DNA of 64,000 bases, taken from positions 32,519-96,518 of the IMG/VR virus record IMGVR_UViG_3300042511_000631; one strand, 5' to 3'. This stretch comes from a virus. Position 1 is the stretch's first letter. Each line of letters begins with the position of its first letter. Positions 8,501 through 62,196 of this stretch are shown piece after piece. Made by a program: the position numbers and the translations under genes. Under the pieces are notes generated by a model, which did no database searches, was not told the DNA's origin, and was given only the letters and a program-made list of their open reading frames with translations.

Positions 8501-8904
8501 TTGAAAAAGCAATAACGTTGCCTTTTTCCTTTGATTCAACCGGGGCGGTATCGCACTCAACGGATCAAAAGAAAATATTACAAGACCGCGTTGTTCTTGT
8601 GGTTATGACCAAATTAAGAGAACGAGTAATGCGTCCTACATTTGGCAGCGAAGCTAGTAACTCATTGTTTGAGAACGTAGACTCAGCCGCAAATATGATC
8701 CGTCAAACTATTGGCGCGGCGTTCTCTAATTGGCTAAAAGGTTTACTTTTGACCAACGTTGAAATTTATGTAGATCCTTCTGAAGGCTATTTAATTGCGG
8801 AAGTGTTCTATAAGATTGATCTACAAGAGAATGAGCAAAGTGTAAGGATAAAAACGGCTATCCTTAGCCGAACAGGCGACGTACTTCTGGAGGTAAATAA
8901 CTAA
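8497..8904 (+). CDS. Baseplate wedge gp25-like protein
   Basis: ERVMRPTFGS motif; ATGA overlap with the upstream gene. Confidence 0.85.
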   Translation: MIEKAITLPFSFDSTGAVSHSTDQKKILQDRVVLVVMTKLRERVMRPTFGSEASNSLFENVDSAANMIRQTIGAAFSNWLKGLLLTNVEIYVDPSEGYLIAEVFYKIDLQENEQSVRIKTAILSRTGDVLLEVNN

Positions 8905-14144: not shown

Positions 14145-15013
14145 TTTCAGCCCGAGCCCTAGGCATCCTTTTGGAAATCGCTTCTACAGGCCTCCAAGGC
14201 GGTGCTGACACCCTTTCTCTCCATTTTAAAGAGGGGCGTGACGCCTGCCAGTCTGCCCTGACCGAACTACGCAAGGCCGGTCTGATAGAGACCAAAACCA
14301 ACAAGTTCAATGGCGGGTTTAGCCGGTCAATTGAGGTCACGGAGCTAGGATTTACTTTCCTGGAAAGCCGTATAAGTATAACCCTGAAAAGCCGTACATC
14401 CATACTGCTGTCACAGCCTAATAGCATATTAAGCACTAATAGCTTATTAGCAAATAAGCAAGAAATAGTACCCGACGGGGTCGGGGATGAAGAATTTTAC
14501 AAGGTCGATTTAAAAACGGGAGGCGAAATGGATTTCTTAGGGCAAATGGATTTAGACCCTGATGACCGCGAGGAACAACTTCGCAAAGGGCGAGAACGCC
14601 GAAAGCTGGATTATCAAGACGCCAAGCAGCAAAAGCACGATGCTATGGTTGCTACAGCTGAAAATCGTTTACCGGCGATGTGGTCGACCAACCAAAGCTC
14701 ATCGGAGTTCATCAAGCGCCTTGAGGACATGTGGCATGTAAAACCTTGGACTGTCAGTCAAGCCCCCTTCAGAGCATCCCTAGCCAACGCTAGAAAGGCC
14801 TACGACACAGACGGCGAGATTGAGATTTTGATGATGGATTTGTATTTTAAGCAGATTGCTCATGAAACTTCTATTGACAACCCTGAGCATATTTGGCGAA
14901 GATTCATCCAACAATTTAGCTCACTTGCGATTGAGGCAAAACGGTCTAGGGTTACCGACGACGATATTGAAACTGAAAAGATTAAAGCCGCAAAGTCTTG
15001 GGAAGGTATTTAA
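14141..15013 (+). CDS. HTH protein, putative replication initiator
   Basis: N-terminal winged HTH (ARALGIL..EGRDA..ALTELRKAGLI); precedes a DnaC-like ATPase. Confidence 0.55.
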   Translation: MISARALGILLEIASTGLQGGADTLSLHFKEGRDACQSALTELRKAGLIETKTNKFNGGFSRSIEVTELGFTFLESRISITLKSRTSILLSQPNSILSTNSLLANKQEIVPDGVGDEEFYKVDLKTGGEMDFLGQMDLDPDDREEQLRKGRERRKLDYQDAKQQKHDAMVATAENRLPAMWSTNQSSSEFIKRLEDMWHVKPWTVSQAPFRASLANARKAYDTDGEIEILMMDLYFKQIAHETSIDNPEHIWRRFIQQFSSLAIEAKRSRVTDDDIETEKIKAAKSWEGI

Positions 15014-15702
15014 TGTTTAATGTTAAAGATCTAAAGGTTCGTCGCCGATCTTGGGTACAAAGCGCGTCTATTCCTAGCGCCCGTGTGGGTTGGACGGTTG
15101 AGGATTGCGTAGATGTAGACAAGGATGACATTGAATCTATCCGCCGTTGGATGTCAACGGTTGAGTCGGGAAAGGTCATCCGCGCTGTCGGATCAAAGTT
15201 TTGTGGCAAAGGGTTACTTTTATACGGCCAACCGGGTCGCGGAAAGTCCACATTAGCTTTGGCTGTGATTCAAGACATGATGAGAACGTTTCCGTTAGAG
15301 GCTTTTGCTCCAGCTGAACACGGGGTAGTTATCCGCCCTTGTTATTTTGCAACTTTTAACAGCATTTTAGACTTAAAGGGGTCTTTAATGGGAGACCCTT
15401 CAATTGAAGAGCAAATAATTTATAACGGAATACTTGGGGAGTGCCAAGACGATGCTTATAACATACGAGTATTGATTATCGACGATCTAGGTAAAGAACA
15501 CGCTAGTTTGTCTGGTTGGCAAAAGAATTTACTTCATCACGTGTTAAGAACCCGCTTTAACAACGGATTGCCTACTATTGTCACCACGAACATCAAACGC
15601 GATGATTGGGGAGGGCTCTACGGTGACGCAACTGAAAGCTTTGCAAACGAAGCTTTTGTTTATATGCCCATTGCTGTCACTAAAGGAGACCTACGTAAAT
15701 GA
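15013..15702 (+). CDS. DnaC/IstB-like AAA+ helicase loader
   Basis: Walker A GQPGRGKS; LIIDDLGKE; PTIVTTN. Confidence 0.85.
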   Translation: MFNVKDLKVRRRSWVQSASIPSARVGWTVEDCVDVDKDDIESIRRWMSTVESGKVIRAVGSKFCGKGLLLYGQPGRGKSTLALAVIQDMMRTFPLEAFAPAEHGVVIRPCYFATFNSILDLKGSLMGDPSIEEQIIYNGILGECQDDAYNIRVLIIDDLGKEHASLSGWQKNLLHHVLRTRFNNGLPTIVTTNIKRDDWGGLYGDATESFANEAFVYMPIAVTKGDLRK

Positions 15703-16014: not shown

Positions 16015-16422
16015 TTGCGAAACGGGGATATCAGCAACGAGCTCCCCAAAAGAATACTTGTAGTAAGTGACATATTCTTAACTGTAGAGCTCACGTTTAA
16101 AAAAGTATTAAAAGTTTTTCCTGTCGCAAAAATTGATAAAAAGATTCGTCGTGACATTTTAAGTTATCTCTACTTGTACACCACTAAACAAGGTGTTACT
16201 TTAGAACTTGTATCGTATGAGTTATCCGATGATGATCTAGCAAAAGTAATTGATATGCTTGACGACATGGGTACTAACCCGTTTAGATACTTCTCAGCGT
16301 ACGAATCAGTGAACCATCTAGTAGCGGAATTGCCTTATCGTCCAGAAGTTGTTGGTGTGCTTGATACACCAGAGCGACTGTTACGTTATGGCCATTGGGG
16401 ATTGGACTTTAATAGACTATGA
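16015..16422 (+). CDS. Hypothetical protein
   Basis: ORF in the replication operon, coupled to DnaB. Confidence 0.55.
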   Translation: MRNGDISNELPKRILVVSDIFLTVELTFKKVLKVFPVAKIDKKIRRDILSYLYLYTTKQGVTLELVSYELSDDDLAKVIDMLDDMGTNPFRYFSAYESVNHLVAELPYRPEVVGVLDTPERLLRYGHWGLDFNRL

Positions 16423-17645
16423 ACAACCAAGTAAAACTCATCAGTAAGATTCTTTCAGACCGAGATGTAACTTTAGTTCTTGAAAAGAATATTAACGAGT
16501 CTTGGTTTTCAGACGCCACAGATAAAAAAATATTTAAGTTTATTCAACAGCATTTTGTTAATTATCAAGAATGCCCAAGCTTAGATGTAATACTCGAGAA
16601 CTTTCCAACTTTTGAGATAACACCTTGCTTAGATAGCGTTGATTATTTAATTGATCGTTTAACTCAAGATCGTCGTAAGCAAAGAATTGTTGCCACACTT
16701 GGATCAGCTCTTGAAGCACTTGAAAGAGAACAAGACCACGAATCAGCTTTACTTGCTTTACAAAATGGAATTGTAAAGTTAGAAGAGGATGGGCTTAACA
16801 GCTCTACAGATTTAGAAATTACTATTGCTGCTAAGTCAGCGGTGGAAGAGTATGAGTGGCGAAAGAATAACCCCGGGCTATTAGGACTACCTACAGGGTT
16901 TCCTACTATTGATAGGGCTACTTCTGGTTTACAGAATGGCCAGTTAATTGTAATTATTGCTCCACCAAAAACTGGTAAGTCAACTCTTGCGTTACAGATT
17001 GCTACTAATTGTCACTTGAATAACAAAGTCCCATTGTTTTATTCGTTTGAGATGAGCAACAGCGAGCAGAAGAGTCGGTACTACGCCATGCGTGCTCGTA
17101 TTTCTCACAAGCGTTTAATGGAAGGTAACTTAACTTCGGAAGAAGAAAGTCGTTATTACCGTGTTGTTAAAGGCATTGAGAACATGCACGATAAGTTTTG
17201 GTTTAGCGACTCCTCTGGCGGTCAGACTGTAAGCGGTGTGGCTAGCAAGATTCAAAATAAGAATCCAGATATTGTTTTTATTGACGGAACTTACTTGATG
17301 ATTGATGAGCAGACTGGTGAGGCAAATACTCCTCAAGCTCTAACTAACATCACTCGTTCTTTAAAGCGTTTAGCTCAGAAGGTTAACAAGCCGATTGTTA
17401 TCTCTACTCAAGTACTGGCTTGGAAGATGAAAGGTGGAAAGGTAAACGCAGACGCTATTGGTTACTCATCTTCTTTTCACCAAGATGCTGACACTATCTT
17501 TGGTTTACAGCGAGAGACTGAAGATGTCGATGACACTCGTTTACTTAAAGTTGTAGCCAGCCGTAACTCTGGACTTAGCGAAGTTTCTCTATGCTGGGAC
17601 TGGGACAGCGGTCAGTTCCGTGAGCTTGGGGTTGAAGACCTATGA
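16419..17645 (+). CDS. dnaB: DnaB-like replicative helicase
   Basis: GLPTGF..D, APPKTGKS, SFEMS, LKRLA, QDAD motifs. Confidence 0.92.
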   Translation: MNNQVKLISKILSDRDVTLVLEKNINESWFSDATDKKIFKFIQQHFVNYQECPSLDVILENFPTFEITPCLDSVDYLIDRLTQDRRKQRIVATLGSALEALEREQDHESALLALQNGIVKLEEDGLNSSTDLEITIAAKSAVEEYEWRKNNPGLLGLPTGFPTIDRATSGLQNGQLIVIIAPPKTGKSTLALQIATNCHLNNKVPLFYSFEMSNSEQKSRYYAMRARISHKRLMEGNLTSEEESRYYRVVKGIENMHDKFWFSDSSGGQTVSGVASKIQNKNPDIVFIDGTYLMIDEQTGEANTPQALTNITRSLKRLAQKVNKPIVISTQVLAWKMKGGKVNADAIGYSSSFHQDADTIFGLQRETEDVDDTRLLKVVASRNSGLSEVSLCWDWDSGQFRELGVEDL

Positions 17646-18571
17646 CAGTTGAAGAGATGCAAGACACCCTTACGCGTTTAGGTATGGAGAGTATTGCTGT
17701 ACGCGGAGATGAAATCCAGAGCTATTGTCCAGCTCACAAAGATAGAACTGGTCGTGAAGACCGCAACCCGTCGTTTTGGATTAACTCCGACACTGGAGCT
17801 TTTATTTGTTTCTCCTGTCAGTTTAAAGGAAATGTTTACAGTTTAATTAGTTATGTAAGCGGTATTGAGTTTGATAAAGCTAAAGAATGGTTTGCTTCTC
17901 CTTCGCTTTTAGTTACTCGGTTTAACCGACTTATTGAAGAAAAGCGGGGGCCAATTGAAGAGCCAACTATTATTACTGAATCGATGCTTAGTGCTTTTGT
18001 AGACCCCCCGCAGGAAGCTTTAAACGCTAGAGGGATATCTTTAGCTGCTGCAAGAGCCTACGAGATTTGTTGGGATGCTAGACAAGACAATTGGATTATC
18101 CCTATTCGTGATTCTAAAACTCAAAAGCTTTTAGGCTGGCAGGAGAAGGGTTACAAACAGCGTTACTTTAACAACCGCCCGGCTAAGATTAAAAAAAGCA
18201 ATTCTTTATTTGGTTACAGCCAGTATGTAGGCGGGGACATGATTGTGGTTGAGTCCCCTTTAGATGTAGTGCGCTTAGCCTCAGTGGGGATTATGGGCGG
18301 GGTGGCTACTTACGGAGCTTTGATATCAGACTCTCAAGTTGGGTACTTAAGAGGAGCCGACCGATTGATCTTTGCTTTAGATAACGACGAAGCTGGAAAG
18401 AACGCGTCTATGAAAATGCTACATACCTGTAAGGCTCTTGATATGGAAGCGTGGTTCTTTAGTTATAGCAATACGGACATGAAAGATATTGGCGGGATGA
18501 GCCTTGATGAGGTACGTTTAGGGTTAACAAACGCCAAACACTTGGTACACGGATTGAGGGCAGTTCTATGA
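17642..18571 (+). CDS. dnaG: DNA primase (CHC2 Zn finger plus TOPRIM)
   Basis: CPAH..CFSC; VVES.LD; ALDNDEAG. Confidence 0.9.
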   Translation: MTVEEMQDTLTRLGMESIAVRGDEIQSYCPAHKDRTGREDRNPSFWINSDTGAFICFSCQFKGNVYSLISYVSGIEFDKAKEWFASPSLLVTRFNRLIEEKRGPIEEPTIITESMLSAFVDPPQEALNARGISLAAARAYEICWDARQDNWIIPIRDSKTQKLLGWQEKGYKQRYFNNRPAKIKKSNSLFGYSQYVGGDMIVVESPLDVVRLASVGIMGGVATYGALISDSQVGYLRGADRLIFALDNDEAGKNASMKMLHTCKALDMEAWFFSYSNTDMKDIGGMSLDEVRLGLTNAKHLVHGLRAVL

Positions 18572-22557: not shown

Positions 22558-24525
22558 ATGGAACATATAATTACAACGATAGAACAACTTAACGCAATGG
22601 TTGAGCATTACATGAAACAAGACGCATTTGCTTTTGACGTTGAAACTGTTGGCGATCGCAGAGGCGTGCCAGCTGTTAACGAAGTACTTTGGATTAGCTT
22701 TGCCACACACAATCGCGGTGACGTTATTCCGTTAGGGCACCCTCATGGAGAGTTTATTAGTGAGGCTTTCCCATTGACCGGGCAAGGAGAAAAGCGTGTG
22801 CTTGCTGGTTTACAGGCAAGAGATTCTGATTACTCTAAAGATAAAAAGAAAGCACTTAAATCTTTTGGCCCAGCACCAGATCAGTTAAACCCTGCCGAAG
22901 TGTTTAAAGCGTTAGCCCCTCTATTTTTTAATGACAAGATTCTAACTATTGGCCACAACTTAGGTTTTGATTTAAGTTCTGTTGCCAAGTATTACAAAGG
23001 GCAGATTCCAAGTGGCCCTTACTTTGACACTCTTATGGGTTCTTTTCTTTACGACAACAAAAATAAAAACAAGGTTGGTCTTGATGATTGCTTAGATCGC
23101 GAGTTTGGCTACAAGATGAAAAAAGGTATTGGCCACATGGTTGAGATTTATTCATTTGATGAAGTAGCTAAGTACGCATATTTAGATGCCAAGTACACGT
23201 TTCTTTTGTGGAAAGCAATTAAACCTAAGATTGTTCAAGCAGAGGTTGATTATGTTATGAGCGTTGAAATGGACGTGTTAAAAGTGTTATGCGACATGAA
23301 GCTTACTGGCGCACCTATTGACATGGAGCAGTTACAGATTTTGTATGACAAGTTAAACATTGAGATTGAAGAAGTTAAATCCGAAATTTATAAGATTGGC
23401 GGCATCTTTAATATTAACTCAAACTCCGATAAGCAATACTTGTTGTATGGCCCAAAGGAGGAGGGCTGCCGCGGGTTGAAGCCTATGATTCTTACAGGTA
23501 AAGGCGAAAAGAACGAAGGCGCATTAAACTATAAAGACTACTCAGTTTCAGCTGAGGCGCTAGAGCCTTTCCGTGAAAAGGACGAGTTAGTAGGAACTAT
23601 TCTTAAATACTCTGACTTAAACAAATTGCTTAGCACCTACGTTATTCCATACCTAGGCGGGGAAGTAACTAAGACTACAAACGGAAAGACTAAGACAGAG
23701 ACCAAGGACAGCTTGCTAGTCAATGGTCGAATCTACGCAGATTTTATTCAATGGGGCGCAGAAACCGGTCGTTTCTCTAGCCGTAACCCTAATTTACAGA
23801 ACATCCCAAACCCTTCGGTAAGCGAAAATGGTCGCGCTATCCGTAATTTATTTAAAGCACCTGCTGGGTACAAGCTAGTGGTGGCTGACTATTCACAGAT
23901 TGAGCCACGCGTTATTGCTGCCATGTCACAAGATCCAATTATGTTAGACAACTATCTAACGGGCGGGGATATCTATACAACTGTAGGAAACACTATGGGG
24001 GTAGACCGTAAAGCTGGCAAGGTGTTGGTACTGGCTATGGCCTACGGCGTTGGCCCGGACAAGATAGCTAAGAGCATCGGGTGTACCGTTACAGAGGCTA
24101 GAAAGCTTCTCACAGACTTTGGGGCTAAGTTTCCAGCGGTCAATGAGTACCGCCAGTTAGTCATTGGTGTAGCCCGCAATCTAGGGTATGTGACCACAAT
24201 TCTTAAGCGCCGCCGATACCTACCAGATATTAACTCTAAAGTGGTTTCGTTTCGAGCAAGCTCAGAGCGACAAGCTTTCAACACGCGGATCCAAGGGTCT
24301 GCTGCGGATATTATTAAACTGGCTATGGTCAGAGCGCATGAGCGTTTGCCAAAAGAGGCTAAACTAATCCTTACAGTTCACGACGAACTGGTAGCTCTGA
24401 CTCCTGATAATCTGGTGGATGAGGCTAAAGAAGCGATTAGAGATGCAATGGAAGGTTTAATTCTATTGCCAATACCTTTAATTGCCGATATCTCTGTAGT
24501 TGAAAGGTGGGGTGATGCTAAGTGA
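22558..24525 (+). CDS. polA: Family A DNA polymerase with 3'-5' exonuclease
   Basis: FDVET exo motif, TGRFSSRNPNLQN, ADYSQIE, K...L...YG, VHDEL. Confidence 0.95.
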   Translation: MEHIITTIEQLNAMVEHYMKQDAFAFDVETVGDRRGVPAVNEVLWISFATHNRGDVIPLGHPHGEFISEAFPLTGQGEKRVLAGLQARDSDYSKDKKKALKSFGPAPDQLNPAEVFKALAPLFFNDKILTIGHNLGFDLSSVAKYYKGQIPSGPYFDTLMGSFLYDNKNKNKVGLDDCLDREFGYKMKKGIGHMVEIYSFDEVAKYAYLDAKYTFLLWKAIKPKIVQAEVDYVMSVEMDVLKVLCDMKLTGAPIDMEQLQILYDKLNIEIEEVKSEIYKIGGIFNINSNSDKQYLLYGPKEEGCRGLKPMILTGKGEKNEGALNYKDYSVSAEALEPFREKDELVGTILKYSDLNKLLSTYVIPYLGGEVTKTTNGKTKTETKDSLLVNGRIYADFIQWGAETGRFSSRNPNLQNIPNPSVSENGRAIRNLFKAPAGYKLVVADYSQIEPRVIAAMSQDPIMLDNYLTGGDIYTTVGNTMGVDRKAGKVLVLAMAYGVGPDKIAKSIGCTVTEARKLLTDFGAKFPAVNEYRQLVIGVARNLGYVTTILKRRRYLPDINSKVVSFRASSERQAFNTRIQGSAADIIKLAMVRAHERLPKEAKLILTVHDELVALTPDNLVDEAKEAIRDAMEGLILLPIPLIADISVVERWGDAK

Positions 24526-37419: not shown

Positions 37420-37878
37420 ATGGCCGTGTTAATGTTTTTAGATGGTGTAATGCGCAATCAACAAGGTTCGCCAATTCCTAATGGTGTGTTGTTATATCAC
37501 ATCTTAAAAGAAAAAAATAAAATATTATTACTTGTTGAAGACAAAGACAAAGCAGACACGTGGCTGCGCCAACACAAAATAAATAAGCTTGACGATCTAA
37601 TTGATTTTAATATCCCTATGCCAGGTGATGATCCAGAGTTCCGTCAAGTTGAGTACGTGCGCTCGCAAGGCCCAGTTGATTATGTAATTACCTCCGACCC
37701 AGCTTTAATTAAAAAACTGTTAGGGATCGGTGTAACTGTATTAGGGTTTATGAACCCTATTTATATTAGGGAAGAGTTTCGGCCAGATAGCAAAGTCGGT
37801 ATTAAAAAGTGGGCGGATATTGTTGATGAGCTAGCCCGCCAACAAGACGCCTTCCTATCGGATCCCCGCGTAGAGTGA
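37420..37878 (+). CDS. HAD-like protein (degenerate motif I)
   Basis: hhhhLDGV N-terminus; Rossmannoid pattern. Confidence 0.45.
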   Translation: MAVLMFLDGVMRNQQGSPIPNGVLLYHILKEKNKILLLVEDKDKADTWLRQHKINKLDDLIDFNIPMPGDDPEFRQVEYVRSQGPVDYVITSDPALIKKLLGIGVTVLGFMNPIYIREEFRPDSKVGIKKWADIVDELARQQDAFLSDPRVE

Positions 37879-39344
37879 AGATCATTTACCTAGGGGCGGA
37901 AGTCCCAAGTAATCGTGTACTACTAGAATCCACTACAGCTAACCATGTAGGCGTTAGCTTCTGGCGGTTAGTTAAGCGAGGGTTACCAAAGAAGAGTGAC
38001 TACATGCTTGACAACTACTTTGCCAAAGACTGCTATATTTATGTTCACCCCGGCATTCCTAAAAACTTAGTCCTATCGGCCTCCGAGGTTGAAGACTTTG
38101 CGGTTATGTACGAGCACTTTGTAGCTAACAACATTGACCGCCTTACTGTAGTTACCGAGATCAACGGCCCACATATCAATCCCGTATTTGTAGAGTCTCA
38201 GCGCCGTACGGTGTGGCATGAGATCCCGCCAGGCAAGTTTCAACCTGTATGGGGACAGCAAACTGGGCTGCGGGGGTTACAAACCCTTGTGGATAAGTAT
38301 TTAGACGTTGCTATCCCCGGAGATGCTATAGAGTCTGATTCTCAGCTTGCTATGGCTACTAGAGCTCACGCTATCCAGCATGGCACTAGGTTCCACGCCC
38401 TAGGCTGCGCCAAGCCTGACAACCTGCGGCAAGTCAAGGTTGAAACAGCTAGCACCTTGTCATGGATGTCACCTATGCTTCATGGCGAAACTATTATTTG
38501 GGATGGCAGCCGACTGGTACGCTACCCAAAGAAGATGAAAGATCAAGCGCGGTCACGGTACAAGCATGTATATGAAAAAGCCGGACTCGACGCAGATAAG
38601 ATTCTAGAAGATGATGCCCAAGAGGTATGTCGACTAGCAGTATGGTCATATGAACAGCTTGAAGTGAGGATAAATAAGATGATCAATAACCCAGATGACG
38701 AGCTCTTATATGATAATAGCGAGTGGAGTGAAGGGGAGCAAAAGGGGGAAACTACCCCTGCCCATGCTGATAACAGGGGTATCCAGATGCGGAAACTTAT
38801 ACCCCGCGAACCCGAAGAAATGGGCAATTTACCAGTCTTCGGATACGAGGATAAGACCGAGGTTGACAACGATGGAGTCATTAAAGATGTCACCGTTGTT
38901 CACTCCCAAAAGGCTAGTTTACGAGCTTGCGATACCTGCTTTGTAGCTGCTAACTGCCCTGCTTTTAAACCTCAAAGTGTCTGTGCTTTCAAGCTTCCAA
39001 TCGAGGTAAAGACCAAAGATCAGCTCAAGAGTTTGATCAACGCAGTCATTGAAATGCAGGGTCAACGCATTGCTTTTATGCGTTTTGCTGAGGAAATGAA
39101 CGGTGGATACGCAGATCCAAACCTTTCACAAGAGATGGATCGCTTGTTTGAAATGCTAAAAGATACCAAGCAACTAGACGATTCACGTGAGTTTATTCGC
39201 ATGACCGTAGAGCGACAAGGCTCCTCTGGTGTGCTAAGTTCTATCTTCGGGGACAAGGCAAATGTCCTTAAAGAACTTCCCGACGGAGGGCTAAATGAAG
39301 CTCAAACCACCGAGATTATCAGGCAATCTTTAGAGGATAAGTAG
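37875..39344 (+). CDS. Putative TGT-like barrel fused to a Cys-cluster domain
   Basis: FHALG..SW..G pattern; CDTC..C..C. Confidence 0.35.
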   Translation: MKIIYLGAEVPSNRVLLESTTANHVGVSFWRLVKRGLPKKSDYMLDNYFAKDCYIYVHPGIPKNLVLSASEVEDFAVMYEHFVANNIDRLTVVTEINGPHINPVFVESQRRTVWHEIPPGKFQPVWGQQTGLRGLQTLVDKYLDVAIPGDAIESDSQLAMATRAHAIQHGTRFHALGCAKPDNLRQVKVETASTLSWMSPMLHGETIIWDGSRLVRYPKKMKDQARSRYKHVYEKAGLDADKILEDDAQEVCRLAVWSYEQLEVRINKMINNPDDELLYDNSEWSEGEQKGETTPAHADNRGIQMRKLIPREPEEMGNLPVFGYEDKTEVDNDGVIKDVTVVHSQKASLRACDTCFVAANCPAFKPQSVCAFKLPIEVKTKDQLKSLINAVIEMQGQRIAFMRFAEEMNGGYADPNLSQEMDRLFEMLKDTKQLDDSREFIRMTVERQGSSGVLSSIFGDKANVLKELPDGGLNEAQTTEIIRQSLEDK

Positions 39345-46143: not shown

Positions 46144-46187
46144 ACCCTATCCCGAAGGGATAAGGGGAGGGTGGGTCAACACAAACA
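46144..46187 (+). repeat. Hairpin/G4 repeat copy 1
   Basis: ACCCTATCCCGAAGGGATAAGGGGAGGGTGGGTCAACACAAACA. Confidence 0.95.
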
Positions 46188-46251
46188 AGTTGCCGAGCTG
46201 CGCCGGTCGCCCGGGCAGCTCAGCAAGCTGGCAGTGTTAGCTAATTCATCG

Positions 46252-46350
46252 TTAATCATCCTCTCTACAGATGTCGCACAGTCTTTCCGCGCAACATATT
46301 GACTCGACCGAGCAGCGTTCGCACCACTCTTTATCTAGATCACAGCTCAT
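46252..46350 (-). CDS. 32-aa Cys-rich microprotein
   Basis: MSCDLDKEWCERCSVESICCAERLCDIC; ATGA-coupled. Confidence 0.45.
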   Translation of the reverse strand: MSCDLDKEWCERCSVESICCAERLCDICREDD

Positions 46351-46673
46351 TTACACTCCAAGCTGTATAAAAGGTTCTCCGCGTACTCATACATCGGCGT
46401 GCCCTCAGCTACCTCTGTCCGGGCCCCGTCAAACCAGTCATGAAAGACATACTCCGCGGAAACGATCTCTCCGAACTTGTGCTTTATCTCTAAATAGTCA
46501 CTAGGGCCACCGTAGCTAAAACACACACGGGTGAACTCATATTGATCAATTGCGAGCGCGGGGTCGTCAAAATACTCATCTGGATCAGGGTGATCCATAA
46601 GCAGTCGTAGCTGCGCATTCCTCTGCGCTAGCTCAGCTTGAATGCGATCTTTACAAGGCTCATTACTACTCAT
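46347..46673 (-). CDS. Hypothetical protein
   Basis: Probable start MSSNEPC; SYGGPSD..DWFDGA motifs. Confidence 0.6.
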   Translation of the reverse strand: MSSNEPCKDRIQAELAQRNAQLRLLMDHPDPDEYFDDPALAIDQYEFTRVCFSYGGPSDYLEIKHKFGEIVSAEYVFHDWFDGARTEVAEGTPMYEYAENLLYSLECK

Positions 46674-46818
46674 TTTCACACCCGCACGCGCAGCTAACCG
46701 CTTCGGTAGCTGCTTCGAGCCCTTTCTCTTTAATATATTCGGTGGCGTAGAAAGAGGCCTCCCCAGCGGAGAGGCCAACCTCCATTCCCCAATCTTTAAG
46801 ACGATCAAACGTGCTCAT
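46666..46818 (-). CDS. 50-aa protein (not in ORF track)
   Basis: Coupled ORF MSTFDRLKDW. Confidence 0.45.
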   Translation of the reverse strand: MSTFDRLKDWGMEVGLSAGEASFYATEYIKEKGLEAATEAVSCACGCENE

Positions 46819-46994
46819 AGCTTCCCCTCAATATTCGTCGAATAGCACTCTTTACAAGTGCCTTCCTCAACCTCATGGAACTCTTTGTAAAAGACATCCT
46901 CAAGCTCACCTTTCTCATCGTACTCAGCTTCGTTATAGCTATTCTCACAATAAGTAAAGCGGCGGGTATTACCACAATCTAGACACTTAGGCAT
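46815..46994 (-). CDS. 59-aa acidic zinc-ribbon protein
   Basis: MPKCLDCG..CKEC; GGAGG RBS. Confidence 0.6.
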   Translation of the reverse strand: MPKCLDCGNTRRFTYCENSYNEAEYDEKGELEDVFYKEFHEVEEGTCKECYSTNIEGKL

Positions 46995-47277
46995 TTGTAA
47001 CCTCCAGTTTAGTAGTCCAGTCCGACATATCAGGGTAGTTCAGGCCGAATATAAAGCCACCGCCATTGCCTTCCTCATCTTGCGATATCTCTATCTTGAT
47101 TAGCTTGCCATTAGCAAGGCGCACCGAAAACTGCGGGAAGGAATCCTCACTACACTCAAGGCCAATTTTGCCCTTAAAGCTAATTATCTTTGCGCCCTCT
47201 AATTGGCTATAGTAACGCTTGTAAAACTCAGCAGCTTTAGCTGCGTGGTGATCGTTTAACGCACTCATCTCTCTCAT
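46987..47277 (-). CDS. Hypothetical protein
   Basis: SQDEEGNGGGF motif; first gene of its cassette. Confidence 0.6.
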   Translation of the reverse strand: MREMSALNDHHAAKAAEFYKRYYSQLEGAKIISFKGKIGLECSEDSFPQFSVRLANGKLIKIEISQDEEGNGGGFIFGLNYPDMSDWTTKLEVTNA

Positions 47278-47309
47278 CTCTCTATCAGTTGTGGTATCTC
47301 CACGGTCAT

Positions 47310-47348
47310 AAATTACTCTCTTTCAGCTACTTATCAACCGACACGCCG
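47310..47348 (-). promoter_or_regulatory. Cassette promoter with GACAC box
   Basis: CGGCGTGTCG then TTGATA-16-TAATTT. Confidence 0.55.
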
Positions 47349-47434
47349 CACTTTCGCAGCTATTTTTTTATAACAATATTGTTATCGACTCTCTCGGCGT
47401 GTCTACTTGACATTCCGGCCGACTCTCTCTCCAC

Positions 47435-47478
47435 ACCCTATCCCGAAGGGATAAGGGGAGGGTGGGCCAACACAAACA
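47435..47478 (+). repeat. Hairpin/G4 repeat copy 2
   Basis: ACCCTATCCCGAAGGGATAAGGGGAGGGTGGGCCAACACAAACA. Confidence 0.95.
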
Positions 47479-47506
47479 TTTGGCTTTTGGGTTTAGGCAT
47501 TTCCCT

Positions 47507-47560
47507 AAAATAAAAAGAGAAATGCCCCAGCTGCCGTCTAACAGCCAGGGCATTCTTTTC
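47507..47560 (-). terminator. Intrinsic terminator
   Basis: AATGCCC..GGGCATT stem with an A-rich left flank (U-tract on minus). Confidence 0.6.
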
Positions 47561-47580
47561 TCTGATAGGAGGAAACCTAT

Positions 47581-47862
47581 TTAATCACAACAGCCACAAC
47601 ATTCTACGCAGACCGGTTGATTATCTTTAATATGAGTCCGGCAAGCATACTCACTCATATTCATATCTGGATTCCGGCAGTCCTCACAGATGATCTCCGC
47701 TAATTGCTGCCATGTCATATCTCTTAAGTGCGGGGGTTCATCTTCATCTACATGAGTCCGATAATGGACTATCAGATCACTAGAGGTAGAGAAGTAACCA
47801 AAGCAATACTCACAGACTCTAGTTACCACAGCAACCCTCCCCATTATGGATCTCTTTAACAT
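47581..47862 (-). CDS. C2H2 zinc-finger plus Cys-cluster protein (true start likely ~47830-47844)
   Basis: CEYCFGYFSTSSDLIVHYRTH; CEDC..C..H..CVECCGCC. Confidence 0.65.
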   Translation of the reverse strand: MLKRSIMGRVAVVTRVCEYCFGYFSTSSDLIVHYRTHVDEDEPPHLRDMTWQQLAEIICEDCRNPDMNMSEYACRTHIKDNQPVCVECCGCCD

Positions 47863-47957
47863 CTAACCACCGTAGCACTTCACCGTCATAGACATCGGCG
47901 GTAAAGTTCATAATTGCGTTTAACCATTTTTCATCGATCTCAAGGGTGACTCTGTAG

Positions 47958-48377
47958 TTAGGCACTTGGCACCTCACTATGAGTCGACACGTATGAGTTC
48001 GCGCCCGGAACTACAACACTATTTAACTTGATAATCGCCTTATGAGGGCACGGGCAATCGGGGGTGGGCACATACTCCTCTTTCCAATAAGTAGTGATCT
48101 CCATTAGAGAGTCGCACTCGGTACAAAGATATTGGTGCTTAACCCATGCGCCAAAGTGTGTCTTATTGACCTTAGATACCAAGCCAAGTTCAGCGATCTG
48201 CGGAGAGAGTTCGTCAATCTCTTCATCTAACTCTACACGAATAGATATATAGTCATCATGGTCTTGATTCTGTCTAAGATAGTTCAGATCTACAGCAACG
48301 CCAATAGCCACATCTAGTAGTACCATGGCATCAGGGTCACCCTGTAAATACTTTTCTGCGATCTCGCGGTTGTTCAT
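47958..48377 (-). CDS. Hypothetical protein with zinc ribbon
   Basis: CTEC..CPC. Confidence 0.6.
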   Translation of the reverse strand: MNNREIAEKYLQGDPDAMVLLDVAIGVAVDLNYLRQNQDHDDYISIRVELDEEIDELSPQIAELGLVSKVNKTHFGAWVKHQYLCTECDSLMEITTYWKEEYVPTPDCPCPHKAIIKLNSVVVPGANSYVSTHSEVPSA

Positions 48378-48422
48378 ATTCTCACCTATCAGGATAAGTC
48401 GGCATTGTTACCGACAAAGCAC

Positions 48423-48461
48423 AAGGTAGTGCCTCTCTCAGTTAATTTCAACGACACGCCG
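48423..48461 (-). promoter_or_regulatory. Cassette promoter with GACAC box
   Basis: CGGCGTGTCG then TTGAAA-17-TACCTT. Confidence 0.65.
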
Positions 48462-48523
48462 TAAAATTACTATAACGATATTGTTATAAACTTAACGGCG
48501 TGTCGCCTTGACTCTCTCTCAAT

Positions 48524-48566
48524 ACCCTATCCCGAAGGGATAAGGGGAGGGTGGGCCAACACAAAC
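48524..48566 (+). repeat. Hairpin/G4 repeat copy 3
   Basis: Identical core to copy 2. Confidence 0.95.
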
Positions 48567-48612
48567 TAATAAGCATTGAGGCTTTGGGCAAAATAGTATT
48601 TTGGCATGCCCT

Positions 48613-48651
48613 AAAAAAAAGATCGCCCCCACCGGCAACCGGCAGGGGCGA
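48613..48651 (-). terminator. Intrinsic terminator
   Basis: TCGCCCC/GGGGCGA stem plus A8 (U8 on minus). Confidence 0.75.
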
Positions 48652-48664
48652 GCTTCTATTTAAT

Positions 48665-48823
48665 TTAATCGAAATAACCTTCAGCCCACAGCCCATTTAG
48701 AAAGACTGTCGCCATAGTTAAATTACCATGTAACCAAGGGTCATCAGTATCATTAACAGTAGTTAAAGCAGACTCAATAGCAGTAACCATGTCATCTAGG
48801 TCAGCTTTGGTATATCCCAGCAT
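48665..48823 (-). CDS. 52-aa protein (not in ORF track)
   Basis: MLGYTKADLDDM..LWAEGYFD. Confidence 0.5.
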   Translation of the reverse strand: MLGYTKADLDDMVTAIESALTTVNDTDDPWLHGNLTMATVFLNGLWAEGYFD

Positions 48824-48826
48824 GGC

Positions 48827-49297
48827 TCACCAACTCGACTGGTACTCGAACGACCAGTATTGTCCATATTTTGCGGTGTGTAGGCACTTGTCAACGATAG
48901 CAATCGTATTGCTAAGGCTTTGGTAATACCAGTCATCTCGCTCAGCATTACCAAAGAAAAACCCTTCGGTAGGTTCTAGCACTCCGCCACCTTTACCGCC
49001 AGCAGGTACCAGCAACTCTAACTGGCAAGCCTCTTTAAGTTTGACTAGATCGTCAACGCTTACATAATACGGCTTACAATTATCCTCACCGCCTTGGACA
49101 TTTTCAACGAACCAGTTATGAATTGCGTTAGCCTTGCGCCAATAACCAACATTGAAAGAGATCTCCATTGACGGGGATTGCTCTGATATTTCGACTTGCG
49201 GATATAAAGCTTTTAAGCGATCAAACTCGCTTGTATCGTCTTGGTGCGACCAGCCGCTTATATATTTTTTTGCGTATAAATACATATCTAAACCCAT
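48827..49297 (-). CDS. Conserved phage protein of unknown function
   Basis: MGLDMYL, YWRKANAIHNWFV, GFFFG, YQSSW. Confidence 0.7.
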   Translation of the reverse strand: MGLDMYLYAKKYISGWSHQDDTSEFDRLKALYPQVEISEQSPSMEISFNVGYWRKANAIHNWFVENVQGGEDNCKPYYVSVDDLVKLKEACQLELLVPAGGKGGGVLEPTEGFFFGNAERDDWYYQSLSNTIAIVDKCLHTAKYGQYWSFEYQSSW

Positions 49298-49321
49298 TTA
49301 CTTACTCCTATCTAGTAGTTT

Positions 49322-49351
49322 GGTGAGCAGTTTAATCTCATGCTCAGGAGA
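49322..49351 (-). ncRNA. Small pseudoknot motif, copy 2
   Basis: TCTC-CTGAGCAT-GAGA-TTAAACT-GCTCA. Confidence 0.6.
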
Positions 49352-49360
49352 GATAGGGGA

Positions 49361-49852
49361 TTACGCCAGCGTTTCGGCAGTAATTTTTTGGTTAGCGATC
49401 TCGTTGATGGCTTCAACGATCTTTGAGTGTAGCCCGTCACGCATTTGCTGAACTGATTCGGGTGACCAGCCAGCGCGGATTACGCGTACCACTAGCAAGG
49501 CTAGTGAGTAACTAGGATCTGCCACTAGACACTTTTCTAGTGACGCCATAGCGTCAGCGGTTAGCCCTACTTCATACTGATAAAGGGCTAATACAGCGTT
49601 AAACGGGGTGCGGTGATTCTCCGCGACATTTTCTGCTAGGTAAGCAAGATATTCAAACGCGGTCATAAAGTCTTTTGACTCTACTGTGAAACCGATTAGG
49701 TAATCGCGCAACTGAACTTCATTTGCTACGGCATAACCGATAATGTCTAGTGACAATGGGCTAATGAACTTCTTATCTAAAAAACGCTGATAATTGTTGT
49801 CAATTATCAGTTTTGCCTCTGAAACAGTAGGCAAGGCTTCAATGCTTAACAT
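49361..49852 (-). CDS. DUF4192-like helical-repeat protein
   Basis: LRD..LA..Y..G..A..L..DP.YSLA.L..AG..P. Confidence 0.6.
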   Translation of the reverse strand: MLSIEALPTVSEAKLIIDNNYQRFLDKKFISPLSLDIIGYAVANEVQLRDYLIGFTVESKDFMTAFEYLAYLAENVAENHRTPFNAVLALYQYEVGLTADAMASLEKCLVADPSYSLALLVVRVIRAGWSPESVQQMRDGLHSKIVEAINEIANQKITAETLA

Positions 49853-49900
49853 TGAAATCTCCTATCAAGAGTTACTAGACCGATCTGATCTAGTAAGAGC

Positions 49901-49940
49901 AATTTAATCTCTCGCCCTGTCAATGTAAAGCGACACGCCG
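49901..49940 (-). promoter_or_regulatory. Cassette promoter with GACAC box
   Basis: CGGCGTGTCG then TTTACA-17-TAAATT. Confidence 0.65.
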
Positions 49941-49985
49941 ACCATTTAGCAATTATTTTTTTATTTTTTACGCGCCTCTCTCAAT

Positions 49986-50029
49986 ACCCTATCCCGAAGG
50001 GATAAGGGGAGGGTGGGCCAACACAAACA
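49986..50029 (+). repeat. Hairpin/G4 repeat copy 4
   Basis: Identical core to copy 2. Confidence 0.95.
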
Positions 50030-50082
50030 TATTAGGCATTGGGAAAAGAAGTTTTGGCACCCTATATAAAACGCGGGCACAG

Positions 50083-50110
50083 AAAAGCCCCGGGGGGAAG
50101 GCCGGGGCTG
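50083..50110 (-). terminator. Intrinsic terminator
   Basis: AGCCCCGG/CCGGGGCT stem plus AAAA. Confidence 0.75.
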
Positions 50111-50135
50111 ATCTGTTTATCTGATAGGGATAAAG

Positions 50136-50228
50136 CTAGTTCTCGCAATCGCTACAGGTTGGTTGGCCGTCAACCAGATGATAGCCGGTAATTTCATCTA
50201 CCGGTGAGCCACAACTCCAGCATTTCAT
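50136..50228 (-). CDS. 30-aa C4 zinc-finger microprotein
   Basis: MKCWSCG..CSDCEN; ATGA-coupled to ArdC. Confidence 0.6.
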   Translation of the reverse strand: MKCWSCGSPVDEITGYHLVDGQPTCSDCEN

Positions 50229-51103
50229 GCGCTCACCTCTTCCTTGACCTCGGCGCCTGTAATACACGCAACCGCTTTTTGCGCCTTCGCGCTCGCCTTA
50301 AAGATTAGGCTGGTGTCATTTTTTAGCGCGGTGAGCCAATTCTTTACATAAGCGCCACTATTAGGCAGATCGAATTCGATTCCCGCGGTTGATAACAGCA
50401 TACATGAGCCTAATTCTGCTACCAATTCCTCTTTGGCGTATGACTCGCAACCAAACGCGCTTGGCTTGTCTGCGGAATCCTTCCAGCGATTCACGCGTGA
50501 TTCGTGACCTGTGGAGTGAATCATCTCATGCGCGAAAGTGTAAGCATGCTCGCCTGCGCTGTCGAATTGCTTAAGTGCTGGCAAGGTGATCGAATCTGCG
50601 CTAGGTGAATAAAATGCGCCCGCTTGCTCGCGATAGTAAAGTGTAGGGCGGTTTGCGTATCCTTCCCAGATCGCGTTAATACCTTCTAAAGGTGTTACAG
50701 GCTCGCGGGTGTCTAGGTACTTACTAGGCAATTCGACACCTTCGGTTTGATCTAGGTTGAATACGCTGTCTAACTTATACATGAAGAAAGATTTAGCTGG
50801 ATCGCCCGCTGGCACTTTCTTATCTATGCGCGACATGAACACCACCTTGGTGGCTTTCTCGCCTTTCTTAACGCTTCCGCCCAATTTCTTTGCTTGGTTG
50901 AAAGTAATCCATAGCGGGCGGGAATACTCTAAACCCGCGATAGATAATAGAAGGTTATTTATGCCTTGGTAAGGTTTGCCAGTTTGTAATGATGTCGGCA
51001 TATAGCCATCGGTTGCCCAACCCTTGCGCCATGGCGCATTGCCTTGTTCTAGTTCTGCCATGATCAACCCTGTAACCATGTCCTTGATTTCTGCTTGATT
51101 CAT
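50225..51103 (-). CDS. ardC: ArdC-family antirestriction protein (ssDNA-binding plus zincin domain)
   Basis: PW.K.W, Y.GIN..LL, W.TFNQA..GG.VKKGEK, VFN..Q, AFY.P..D.I..P, HEMIHSTGH, YA.EELVAE. Confidence 0.9.
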   Translation of the reverse strand: MNQAEIKDMVTGLIMAELEQGNAPWRKGWATDGYMPTSLQTGKPYQGINNLLLSIAGLEYSRPLWITFNQAKKLGGSVKKGEKATKVVFMSRIDKKVPAGDPAKSFFMYKLDSVFNLDQTEGVELPSKYLDTREPVTPLEGINAIWEGYANRPTLYYREQAGAFYSPSADSITLPALKQFDSAGEHAYTFAHEMIHSTGHESRVNRWKDSADKPSAFGCESYAKEELVAELGSCMLLSTAGIEFDLPNSGAYVKNWLTALKNDTSLIFKASAKAQKAVACITGAEVKEEVSA

Positions 51104-51145
51104 TTCTATCCCCTATCAAAGGTCACCCGATTAGGTGATGAGATG

Positions 51146-51185
51146 AAGGTATTCTCTATCTCTATGAATTACAAGCCACGCGCCC
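51146..51185 (-). promoter_or_regulatory. Cassette promoter
   Basis: Degenerate box GGGCGCGTGG then TTGTAA-17-TACCTT. Confidence 0.6.
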
Positions 51186-51214
51186 ATTTATTAGGTAACG
51201 ATTAGATAACGATT

Positions 51215-51258
51215 TAATCCACAGCTTTATACACAGGCTGTGGATAACCTGTGGATAA
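51215..51258. promoter_or_regulatory. Cluster of four DnaA boxes
   Basis: TAATCCACA, TTATACACA, TGTGGATAA, TGTGGATAA, spaced 3/3/2 nt. Confidence 0.8.
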
Positions 51259-51266
51259 CTCTCTCC

Positions 51267-51310
51267 ACCCTATCCCGAAGGGATAAGGGGTGGGAGGGCC
51301 AACACAAACA
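51267..51310 (+). repeat. Hairpin/G4 repeat copy 5 (loop bases swapped)
   Basis: ACCCTATCCCGAAGGGATAAGGGGTGGGAGGGCCAACACAAACA. Confidence 0.95.
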
Positions 51311-51341
51311 TTAGGCATCGGGAAATATTATTTGGCGCCCT

Positions 51342-51373
51342 AAAAAAAAGAACCCCCGCTGGGTGCGGGGGCT
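51342..51373 (-). terminator. Intrinsic terminator
   Basis: CCCCCGC/GCGGGGG stem plus A8. Confidence 0.8.
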
Positions 51374-51390
51374 CGATCGATAGGGTTTAT

Positions 51391-51495
51391 CTAAACAGCT
51401 TCACAATCATGTCCGTAATACCACTCACTAGCCTCATTTTCGTTGGCCAGATTAAATATCTTCCAACAGTGCGCGCATCTAATAACAGCTTTCAT
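51391..51495 (-). CDS. 34-aa zinc-binding microprotein
   Basis: CAHC..HDC; AGAAAGG RBS. Confidence 0.6.
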   Translation of the reverse strand: MKAVIRCAHCWKIFNLANENEASEWYYGHDCEAV

Positions 51496-51520
51496 TTTTT
51501 TACCTTTCTAAAGTTGATGT

Positions 51521-51550
51521 GGTGAGCCTTTTAAACCCATGCTCAGGGGC
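51521..51550 (-). ncRNA. Small pseudoknot motif, copy 3
   Basis: GCCC-CTGAGCAT-GGGT-TTAAAAG-GCTCA. Confidence 0.6.
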
Positions 51551-51555
51551 TAGTG

Positions 51556-51693
51556 CTATAACTGCGCTAACAAGCCGTTGTATTCATCCCATGTAATTTG
51601 CTTGGTGTAAAACTGAATTCCTAGTGCTATTTCTTTTTGTTTGCGATCTTCCGGGCCGGAAACAAAAGTTTCGTACCAAGTAGCGTAATCCAT
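51556..51693 (-). CDS. 45-aa protein
   Basis: AGAAAGGA RBS; MDYATWYETF. Confidence 0.55.
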   Translation of the reverse strand: MDYATWYETFVSGPEDRKQKEIALGIQFYTKQITWDEYNGLLAQL

Positions 51694-51716
51694 TTTATAA
51701 TCCTTTCTAGTAAGAG

Positions 51717-51746
51717 GGTGAGCCTTTTAAACCCATGCTCAGGGGT
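51717..51746 (-). ncRNA. Small pseudoknot motif, copy 4
   Basis: ACCC-CTGAGCAT-GGGT-TTAAAAG-GCTCA. Confidence 0.6.
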
Positions 51747-51753
51747 GGGGATC

Positions 51754-52116
51754 TTAGTAGTCTAGAGTTTCGTAATTCTCTAGGTAAGCGATATCCGATT
51801 CGGCAGCGGGGGTGCTGTAAATGCGGATAGATGAAGGAACCATGTCGTAAAGGTTTTCATCGGCAAGTTCGTAAGCCTTTTCAGATGAGCGGGCTTTTAC
51901 AGTAATTTCAGCGGTGTAAAGGAAAGAAACCTTTACAGGGAACTCAGTTTCTAGCCCCTCAAGTCCTAGGCTTTCTAGGAACTCATTTGCGGTGTCCTCG
52001 TCAATGTCATTGTCATTAACAAAGTCAATGAAGGTGGTGCGAACCTGCTCCTTGTAATCAACCAAGGCGTTACGAGTTGCGTTGAGTAACGCAATCGTTT
52101 CTGGCGCGATGTCCAT
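51754..52116 (-). CDS. Acidic hypothetical protein
   Basis: ATG 52116 after TGATAGGGG. Confidence 0.65.
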   Translation of the reverse strand: MDIAPETIALLNATRNALVDYKEQVRTTFIDFVNDNDIDEDTANEFLESLGLEGLETEFPVKVSFLYTAEITVKARSSEKAYELADENLYDMVPSSIRIYSTPAAESDIAYLENYETLDY

Positions 52117-52163
52117 TTTATCCCCTATCAAGAGATTAAGTACCAGCGGTTGCTGATAGGTGT

Positions 52164-52205
52164 ATTTTGACAGGTAGCAAGTAGTGAGTCAATAGCGACA
52201 CGCCC
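52164..52205 (-). promoter_or_regulatory. Cassette promoter with GACAC box
   Basis: GGGCGTGTCG then TTGACT-17-CAAAAT with extended TG. Confidence 0.65.
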
Positions 52206-52256: not shown

Positions 52257-52272
52257 TCGAACGCCTGTTCGA
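52257..52272. promoter_or_regulatory. Actinobacterial LexA SOS box
   Basis: TCGAAC-GCCT-GTTCGA, a perfect match to TCGAAC-N4-GTTCGA. Confidence 0.75.
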
Positions 52273-61800: not shown

Positions 61801-62196
61801 CATGCCTAAAAAAAGAAAGCTAGAACTAACCGAGACAACGGCCATAGCCCAAAAAGCTGCAGCAACACTGGGCTCTACCAGAGACGGTAGAGACAGACTG
61901 ACTAGGGCTAGTTACAAAGGTGCTATTAAAGTCACGGACACCCACGGCAAACAATGGAACCGCTGGTCTCCGTGAGAAAAAAAGAGTTTAAAACGGCAAT
62001 TGCAAAACCTATTACTATTCGTGATTCGCGGTTTGGTATTAGAAAGATTTATTTAAACCCAAATGAAGAGCCAAGTATTGGCGGAGTACAGCAAAGACCA
62101 GGTCGCGGACCAAATGGAGAGTCTCAAAACTAAGGTTTAGCCCCAAAAGCAAGAGCATTTCCTCTAAGGTAGGACATAGTTTTTGAAAGGATACTC

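Follow-up and report, generated by a model that had tools for sequence, protein, structure and literature searches.

A converging array of DnaA boxes in the upstream spacer of an anti-restriction gene cassette of a lake phage: a candidate docking site for host DnaA

Phages such as lambda, P1 and T5 were recognized decades ago to carry DnaA boxes, and host DnaA boxes within phage control DNA are a known kind of element. What such boxes do in lytic phages that encode their own replisome is still unsettled, and the locus described here bears on this question: why should a phage equipped with its own replication proteins carry, in front of an early gene, a compact group of sites for the replication initiator of its host? 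The analyzed window is a 64,000-nucleotide stretch, i.e. bases 32519-96518 of the complete 96.5-kb IMG/VR record IMGVR_UViG_3300042511_000631, which has a 113-bp end repeat. The group of boxes occupies positions 51215-51258 of the window, which corresponds to 83.7 kb of the genome, 12.7 kb from its nearer end.

The sequence-only reading of this DNA had claimed that the phage possesses its own replisome, and Pfam/PHROGs searches confirmed the presence of a DnaB-type helicase, a DnaG-type primase, a loader-like ATPase and PolA. RecA is also encoded by the phage, and no DnaA domain IV (the DnaA-type DNA-binding domain) is encoded anywhere in its genome. These genes, together with a gene relevant to the probable host, are as follows.

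14998-15702: IstB/DnaC-like ATPase (Pfam/PHROGs)
16419-17645: DnaB-type helicase (Pfam/PHROGs)
17642-18571: DnaG-type primase (Pfam/PHROGs)
22558-24525: PolA (Pfam/PHROGs)
37875-39344, plus strand: DpdA-like tRNA-guanine transglycosylase homologue (PHROG 887, approx. 32% identical to Streptomyces phage genes), which suggests that the phage DNA may carry a 7-deazaguanine modification

Genes of the window are directed rightward up to approx. 42.4 kb, leftward between approx. 42.5 and 52.3 kb, and rightward again from 52.4 kb. The leftward block is an array of short cassettes, and the boxes are situated between the terminator of one cassette and the predicted promoter of the next. No tRNA genes were identified within the window, and Rfam returned only sub-threshold microRNA-like matches caused by the inverted repeats. 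The features distinguished in this region are listed below in the order in which they are met on the minus strand.

51342-51374, minus strand: intrinsic terminator of the first (upstream) early cassette
51259-51309: intergenic repeat, copy 5 of five, with a C-GAA-G / UUCG hairpin overlapping a G-run motif and CAACACAAAC at its end
51250-51258, minus strand: DnaA box a, perfect TTATCCACA, next base G
51239-51247, minus strand: DnaA box b, perfect TTATCCACA, 2 bp from box a, with which it forms a double box; kept in relatives G001 and L203
51227-51235, plus strand: DnaA box c, TTATACACA, which fits TTATNCACA and differs from the perfect box only at the free position 5; perfect in relatives
51215-51223, plus strand: DnaA box d, TAATCCACA, one mismatch, 3 bp from box c; a perfect box is found there in G001
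51190-51209, minus strand: two 11-bp repeats ATCGTTAYCTA with weak box-like TTATCTAAT and TTACCTAAT
51146-51174, minus strand: putative sigma-70-type promoter of the ArdC cassette (-35 TTGTAA at 51174-51169, 17-nt spacer, -10 TACCTT at 51151-51146), assigned by analogy with the other cassettes
50225-51103, minus strand: ArdC-like anti-restriction gene (292 residues, ArdcN and zincin peptidase domains), the first gene after the array

Two neighboring boxes separated by 2 or 3 bp are referred to as a double DnaA box. In Escherichia coli, DnaA is found in vivo almost only at box pairs with this spacing, many of them at DnaA-regulated promoters, and a G follows 12 of the 15 double boxes listed (PMC11317965, Table 1). 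We took TTATNCACA as the box consensus and TTATCCACA as the sequence of top affinity. Read on the plus strand, the 44 bp consist of TAATCCACA, 3 bp, TTATACACA, 3 bp, TGTGGATAA, 2 bp and a second TGTGGATAA; each strand thus carries two of the boxes, and the resulting pairs converge, with a period of 11-12 bp and with box c facing box b across a 3-bp gap. All four are followed by G. The four boxes reported earlier were found at their positions, two of them perfect on the minus strand; the gaps, described as 2-3 nt, measure 3, 3 and 2 bp; and copy 5 of the G-rich repeat begins at 51259, directly after box a, so that the two elements abut as had been noted. The array is prolonged by the weak 9-mers TTATCTAAT (51201-51209) and TTACCTAAT (51190-51198), both on the minus strand and phased by 11 bp. 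They form part of the ATCGTTAYCTA repeat, a second type of motif, which also occurs in other cassettes and in relatives.

Such a grouping does not arise by chance. In 300 first-order Markov simulations of the window, with boxes counted up to one mismatch, no 44-bp segment contained more than two boxes, and clusters of four are expected approx. 1e-6 times per window. In the whole 96.5-kb genome there are seven perfect boxes, compared with approx. 0.7 expected. On the basis of the simulations and this expectation, chance can be excluded as the source of the cluster.

The spacer into which the boxes are built follows a grammar shared by the other cassettes of the phage. On the minus strand the terminator is followed by repeat copy 5, boxes a-d, the two ATCGTTAY repeats, a degenerate GGCGTGTCG-type box and the -35/-10 hexamers; downstream of the putative -10 there are a small 5′ hairpin, a GATAGG-type ribosome site and the start codon of the ArdC-like gene. 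A strict consensus scan did not call the ArdC-cassette promoter. Relative to its predicted transcription start, the array would cover positions from approx. -51 to -119, and the 40 nt between the array and the -35 hexamer exceed the corresponding distance in single-box cassettes. The remaining cassettes of the phage are built in the same way, with different spacer DNA: a TATAAC...GTTATA-type palindrome is present in two and A-tracts in one.

Several repeated elements of these spacers deserve description in their own right. The intergenic repeat is present in five copies (window 46144-51310, starting at about 46128, 47425, 48514, 49976 and 51259), each of them located between a terminator and the next promoter. 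It forms a stable hairpin with C-GAA-G on one strand and a UUCG loop in the RNA sense, overlapping a motif of four G-runs, and its end, CAACACAAAC, recurs in both orientations throughout the phage family. An N4-type hairpin promoter was considered for this adjoining repeat and dropped; the genome is devoid of a giant virion RNA polymerase gene (the largest frame encodes 960 aa). Spacer motifs that alternate with the DnaA box were found at 47339-52205 of the window and in relatives: GGCGTGTCG abuts the -35 hexamer of several cassettes and has inverted partners, while ATCGTTAT is repeated with an 11-bp period and occurs also as the TATAAC...GTTATA palindrome of two cassettes. Both GGCGTGTCG and ATCGTTAT may be sites for phage regulators.

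Searches for relatives gave very different yields depending on the gene used. No near-identity match to the 2.2-kb region was found among GenBank phages, and the exact 32-mer of the cluster is absent from IMG/VR. The ArdC-like protein retrieved only six loci and the DUF4192 protein none, which indicates that these early genes are poorly conserved. The cassette repeat led to 59 IMG/VR loci, many of them on contigs of approx. 90-98 kb, and the class II ribonucleotide reductase (RNR) to more than 599 IMG/VR stretches, i.e. the phage family is very abundant in lake metagenomes. The reductase also retrieved relatives with 97-99% identity.

The closest relative compared (G001; 88% identical in RNR and 62% in ArdC) holds a homologous cluster, in which one partial forward box and two perfect reverse boxes succeed each other with gaps of 3 bp and the TTATCTAAT repeat comes after them. 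It is shifted by one cassette spacer and lies after the ArdC gene, not before it. Locus L203 has two clusters with the same forward-forward-reverse layout. In L140, L142, L164, L175 and L184, five loci that come from two or more relatives and include several near-identical ones, a forward box is followed after 17 bp by overlapping reverse boxes, in the divergent region before the first cassette. A four-way alignment revealed that the box block is the best-conserved stretch, with diverging flanks. Within the 59 repeat-anchored loci we distinguished 76 distinct perfect sites, with the consensus GCC-box-CT. When CAACACAAAC was used as an independent anchor, the box following it proved to be all-or-none: 21 sites are perfect vs. 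two with one mismatch, and the reversed-sequence control gave none with fewer than two mismatches. The motif placed after the box changes with the lineage and is either GTTAACA/GTGAACA, N11-GTTAT-N6-GTTAT or CTTTCTGAG.

In two loci (L188 and L172) there are 8-10 perfect boxes, one per early-cassette spacer and all in a single orientation, and in at least five cassettes read by eye the -35 hexamer starts 16 nt after the box. When a generic rule was applied to 74 family sites, no more than 12 had a properly spaced -35/-10 pair on their downstream side; the 16-nt spacing is thus a property of a subset.

The presence of boxes is patchy. We inspected 10 kb on either side of the RNR gene in 80 reductase-anchored relatives (78-88% identity): 56 have no perfect box there, about eight have at least three, and six have a cluster. 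Thus, conservation in relatives, which had been named as a check on the cluster, gave a divided answer – the closest relative compared and a few others keep a homologous cluster, and most relatives are without one. In relatives devoid of boxes the same array contains different repeated 9-mers, e.g. AATCGTTAT, GGGTTGTTA and GATCCTGGC. Taken together, the patchiness and these alternative 9-mers indicate that the DnaA box belongs to a set of spacer motifs that can replace one another and is no fixed part of the replication apparatus. Beyond the family, IMG/VR was scanned for exact matches to two perfect boxes with a 2-bp gap, which yielded more than 119 loci, against approx. two expected from a rough estimate of the size of the collection; they span 32-67% G+C, and only seven carry the repeat of this phage family.

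DnaA boxes are recognized by a protein of the host, and the identity of the host is therefore of interest. Two whiB genes, a DUF4192 domain and the DpdA-like gene matching Streptomyces phages indicate that the host is probably an actinobacterium; an alignment of four WhiB sequences was used for the host look-up. The G+C content of the phage (roughly 43-47%) compares with approx. 47% around the origin of small genomes of the host type. Model actinobacteria prefer TTGTCCACA (PMC4285127), and for this reason low-G+C actinobacteria were tested directly. Tandem perfect pairs with 2-3-bp gaps were found in 10 of 401 evenly sampled genomes of the class Actinomycetes (control: 0). The pair adjoins a dnaA gene in five of the 10, as identified by Pfam (G222, G123, G278 and G109) or by a matching 467-residue frame in a near-identical layout (G381). 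Three of the five, G222, G123 and G381, are genomes of 1.3-1.5 Mb with approx. 47% G+C around the origin, in which the tandem pairs are placed in the gap after a first frame of 467-471 residues; in two of the three the frames flanking this gap are DnaA and DnaN by Pfam. After the pairs come an imperfect third box, weaker boxes in the opposed orientation, CTA repeats and a stretch rich in A+T. A dnaA-dnaN gap with tandem perfect boxes exists also in a genome of 64% G+C. The 9-mer of the phage array is therefore present at the origin of the inferred host type, and these tandem pairs identify the phage boxes as high-affinity origin boxes of the probable host type.

A further 1.5-Mb actinobacterial genome, G306, contains two dense arrays of six to seven perfect DnaA boxes on different contigs (C18, about 8732-8823, locus L312; and C24, about 62009-62170), one of which is presumably oriC. 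The unpublished genome G006 underlies none of the statements made here.

Binding of DnaA by the phage array is likely. Besides the exact consensus and the spacing rule, this prediction from sequence draws on the all-or-none conservation of the box beside changing neighbors, the restriction of its variation to tolerated positions, the match with origins of the host type, and the lack of a DnaA-like domain in the phage.

A second host regulator appears to be represented in the same set of spacers. The spacer of the first leftward early cassette contains a perfect LexA (SOS) box, TCGAAC-N4-GTTCGA, of the actinobacterial/Gram-positive type (52257-52272). This box has no second copy in the 96.5-kb genome and occupies the place where L142 has a DnaA box; the three host-type genomes contain 2-3 LexA boxes each (control: 0). 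The occurrence, at a homologous position, of a site for another host master regulator makes the DnaA reading more credible.

Considering these data, we propose that the 44-bp cluster may be a high-affinity docking array for host DnaA, formed by two facing double boxes and weaker phased sites, which would serve as an upstream control module making the firing of the ArdC early promoter dependent on how much host DnaA is present or on its state, in an activating or a gating manner. Modules of this kind would be swappable, with perfect DnaA boxes, a LexA box and phage-specific repeats holding equivalent spacer positions across cassettes and phages; the soaking up of DnaA would be a likely side effect. 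Taken as a whole, with its transcriptional role included, this statement has in our judgment slightly under an even chance of being correct. Control of the ArdC promoter had been among the roles suggested from the sequence, and it is the one that best fits the material: the array is in the upstream spacer, and the perfect boxes of relatives are in early-cassette spacers, several of them 16 nt before a -35 hexamer. Several points count against it: the strict scan did not call the promoter, the 16-nt spacing is limited to a subset of family sites, the array is farther from the -35 hexamer than single boxes are, and TTGTCCACA is preferred by model actinobacteria. In addition, the repeated spacer motifs are lineage-specific, as phage-encoded regulators would also make them, and the converging core is palindromic, as is the operator of a dimeric phage protein. 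It is also possible, and we put this forward more tentatively, that the early cassettes in general are wired to host master regulators through swappable modules (the DnaA box, single or as a converging array; the LexA box; phage repeats). The phage would then sense replication-initiation potential and DNA damage before early expression, and host DnaA would be a transcription factor for the early promoters of a lytic phage.

The lineage-specific motifs and the palindromic core would be accounted for if the site were an operator for a phage-encoded (or another host) protein that happens to coincide with the DnaA box, for example a dimeric repressor shutting off early genes. In relatives the core – a box, 3 bp and an inverted box – is a 21-bp palindrome, repeated spacer motifs differ between lineages, and an extended motif consisting of the box and CTTTCT is common to lake phages, Microbacterium phage Big4 and Streptomyces phage Karimac. 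A match at nine of nine positions to the universal DnaA consensus would, however, be improbable by chance for a phage motif, and most family sites are single, asymmetric 9-mers. Moreover, the box stays invariant while the adjoining motifs change, and its variants (at position 5, TTTTCCACA and ATATCCACA) are those tolerated by DnaA, the latter two being present at a host-type origin. The tandem pairs in viral contigs of widely differing G+C content, few of which have the repeat of this family, argue in the same direction, and we regard an operator as distinctly unlikely. Somewhat less unlikely, in our opinion, is a sink for DnaA or a datA/DARS-like device acting on its nucleotide state, by which the phage would block or deregulate host initiation while replicating itself with its own helicase, primase, loader-like ATPase and polymerase. 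Seven perfect boxes in the phage, and up to 10 within 13 kb in relatives, stand against 13-23 in a whole host-type chromosome; with a single phage genome the perfect-box complement of the chromosome would grow by roughly a third to a half, and replicated phage DNA would outnumber the host sites. Titration, as suggested by the sequence-only reading, is hence possible. Its companion, the manipulation of the DnaA nucleotide state, is harder to sustain. It is known that datA requires an IHF site. The opposed boxes of the phage recall the DARS core, whose three boxes include an opposed pair, I and II, with 5 bp between them (PMC6868365), but here the opposed boxes are separated by 3 bp. Against a sink of either type, the boxes are found at particular positions of promoter spacers, and most relatives with the same replisome hold none. 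As a second effect, a sink is compatible with the control of the early promoter by DnaA.

Phased, converging boxes resemble the DnaA-assembly region of oriC, and the cluster could accordingly be viewed as a replication origin of the phage or as a site that activates one, with host DnaA either opening the duplex there or bringing in the phage helicase. Host DnaA boxes are used by iteron plasmids as well as by the P1 origin. RK2 is named among such plasmids (PMC11317965). The cluster, however, is not accompanied by an AT-rich unwinding element (local A+T content is 48-63%, against a genome maximum of 79%) or by a DnaA-trio run beside the boxes, while the host-type origin has both an unwinding element and a trio-like run. 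The analysis of GC skew over the whole genome, which had been advised as a check, revealed no switch of strand composition at the cluster: the cumulative extremes are at approx. 20 kb and 72 kb and track the gene strand and not the position of the cluster (83.7 kb). Boxes are missing from most relatives that share the replisome, box-rich ones spread their boxes over many cassettes, and the cluster of G001 sits in a different cassette spacer. The lack of an unwinding element, a trio run and a skew switch, combined with the patchy distribution, makes an origin very improbable, and the earlier suggestion of a host-initiated early origin is not supported. An even smaller chance is given to a T5-like pause of DNA entry, in which membrane-bound DnaA would anchor the incoming DNA until the early proteins are available. 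The pre-early region of T5-like phages contains eight DnaA boxes, as 3-bp-spaced pairs in inverted repeats, and their role is unproven (bioRxiv 10.1101/866236, citing Heusterspreute 1987); the T5 model is itself still a hypothesis. The only four perfect boxes of phage Big4 are one tandem pair occurring twice, 174,694 bp apart, which is consistent with long terminal repeats. In the phage analyzed here the pairs and the inverted layout are present and a long terminal repeat is absent: the end repeat has only 113 bp, and 12.7 kb separate the cluster from the nearer end. Relatives with one box in each of many cassettes are also hard to reconcile with one stop site.

A second pair of perfect boxes is located outside the window, 28.4 kb before it (genome 4128-4136 and 4160-4168; locus L196, 2361-2401). 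The two boxes have the same orientation and are 23 bp apart; the divergent gap that contains them is AT-rich and precedes a gene for a secreted transglycosylase-like protein as well as a whiB gene. G001 has retained the pair, with a change in the second box that is confined to the free position 5, and this counts in favor of the DnaA reading. As a candidate origin the pair is more suitable than the cluster at 51215-51258.

With regard to DnaA boxes of lytic phages that have their own replisome, the boxes of this family are a conserved but optional module of early-cassette promoter spacers, exchangeable with a LexA box and matching the origin boxes of the probable host type. These three properties point to the sensing of the host state or the capture of DnaA, and away from replication. 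The use of the boxes as a modular, swappable spacer element beside a LexA box appears to be new, and a full-text literature search found no paper on DnaA boxes at phage early promoters.

Similar arrangements were sought among cultured phages. A permissive GenBank search with the 81-bp region (E-value up to 10) gave short partial matches in 435 phage records, including T5-like Klebsiella phages and Salmonella, Streptomyces and Microbacterium phages. Two of them, belonging to other phage families with high-G+C hosts, display the same module. In Microbacterium phage Big4 (L321, ON637770.1, approx. 15.94-15.97 kb) a terminator precedes a weak box in forward orientation, after which there are two perfect reverse boxes with a 3-bp gap, the CTTTCT motif, promoter-like -35 and -10 hexamers and the small gene 42. 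In Streptomyces phage Karimac (L322, MH590599.1, approx. 119.23-119.26 kb) a box, a weak site and a converging box are followed by CTTTCTGAG and a -35-like hexamer, in a gap without an annotated gene. The box sites are unannotated in both records. Since the module is present in these cultured phages, the question is open to bench testing with ordinary tools. The copies of the Big4 pair, at 15.94-15.97 and 190.64-190.66 kb, contain the only perfect boxes in 192 kb, and the duplication is reminiscent of the T5 injection-stop region.

Among characterized systems, the closest counterparts are the double boxes of the E. coli nrdA, polA, purH, dnaA and mioC promoters (Stringer et al. 2024, PMC11317965). 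As in the phage, these are pairs with 2- or 3-bp spacing, at least one perfect box and usually a subsequent G, placed upstream of a promoter. A DnaA-regulated promoter is expected to have a double box overlapping it or within about 100 bp on its upstream side, and an output that changes with DnaA; the position of the phage array fits the predicted -35/-10. In E. coli DnaA acts there as a transcription factor, whereas this role is predicted for the phage array, which differs further in having two facing pairs with additional weaker sites and in its location upstream of an anti-restriction gene. T5-like phages share with the phage described here a lytic life cycle, their own replisome and 3-bp-spaced inverted-repeat pairs in early, largely untranslated control DNA; in T5, however, the boxes are in a terminal repeat of roughly 10 kb with 52-bp spacers between the arms, while here four contiguous boxes abut a predicted promoter 12.7 kb from the end. 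E. coli DARS1 and DARS2 have three or four clustered boxes, two of them opposed, as here, but they are chromosomal elements that release ADP from DnaA, a function for which the phage cluster offers no support. Finally, oriC of the small actinobacterial genomes G222, G123 and G381 has in common with the phage cluster the same perfect 9-mer, tandem pairs (1-3 bp apart) and opposed groups of boxes, to which it adds the DnaA-trio-like CTA repeats and the AT-rich unwinding stretch, neither of which is found in the phage cluster.
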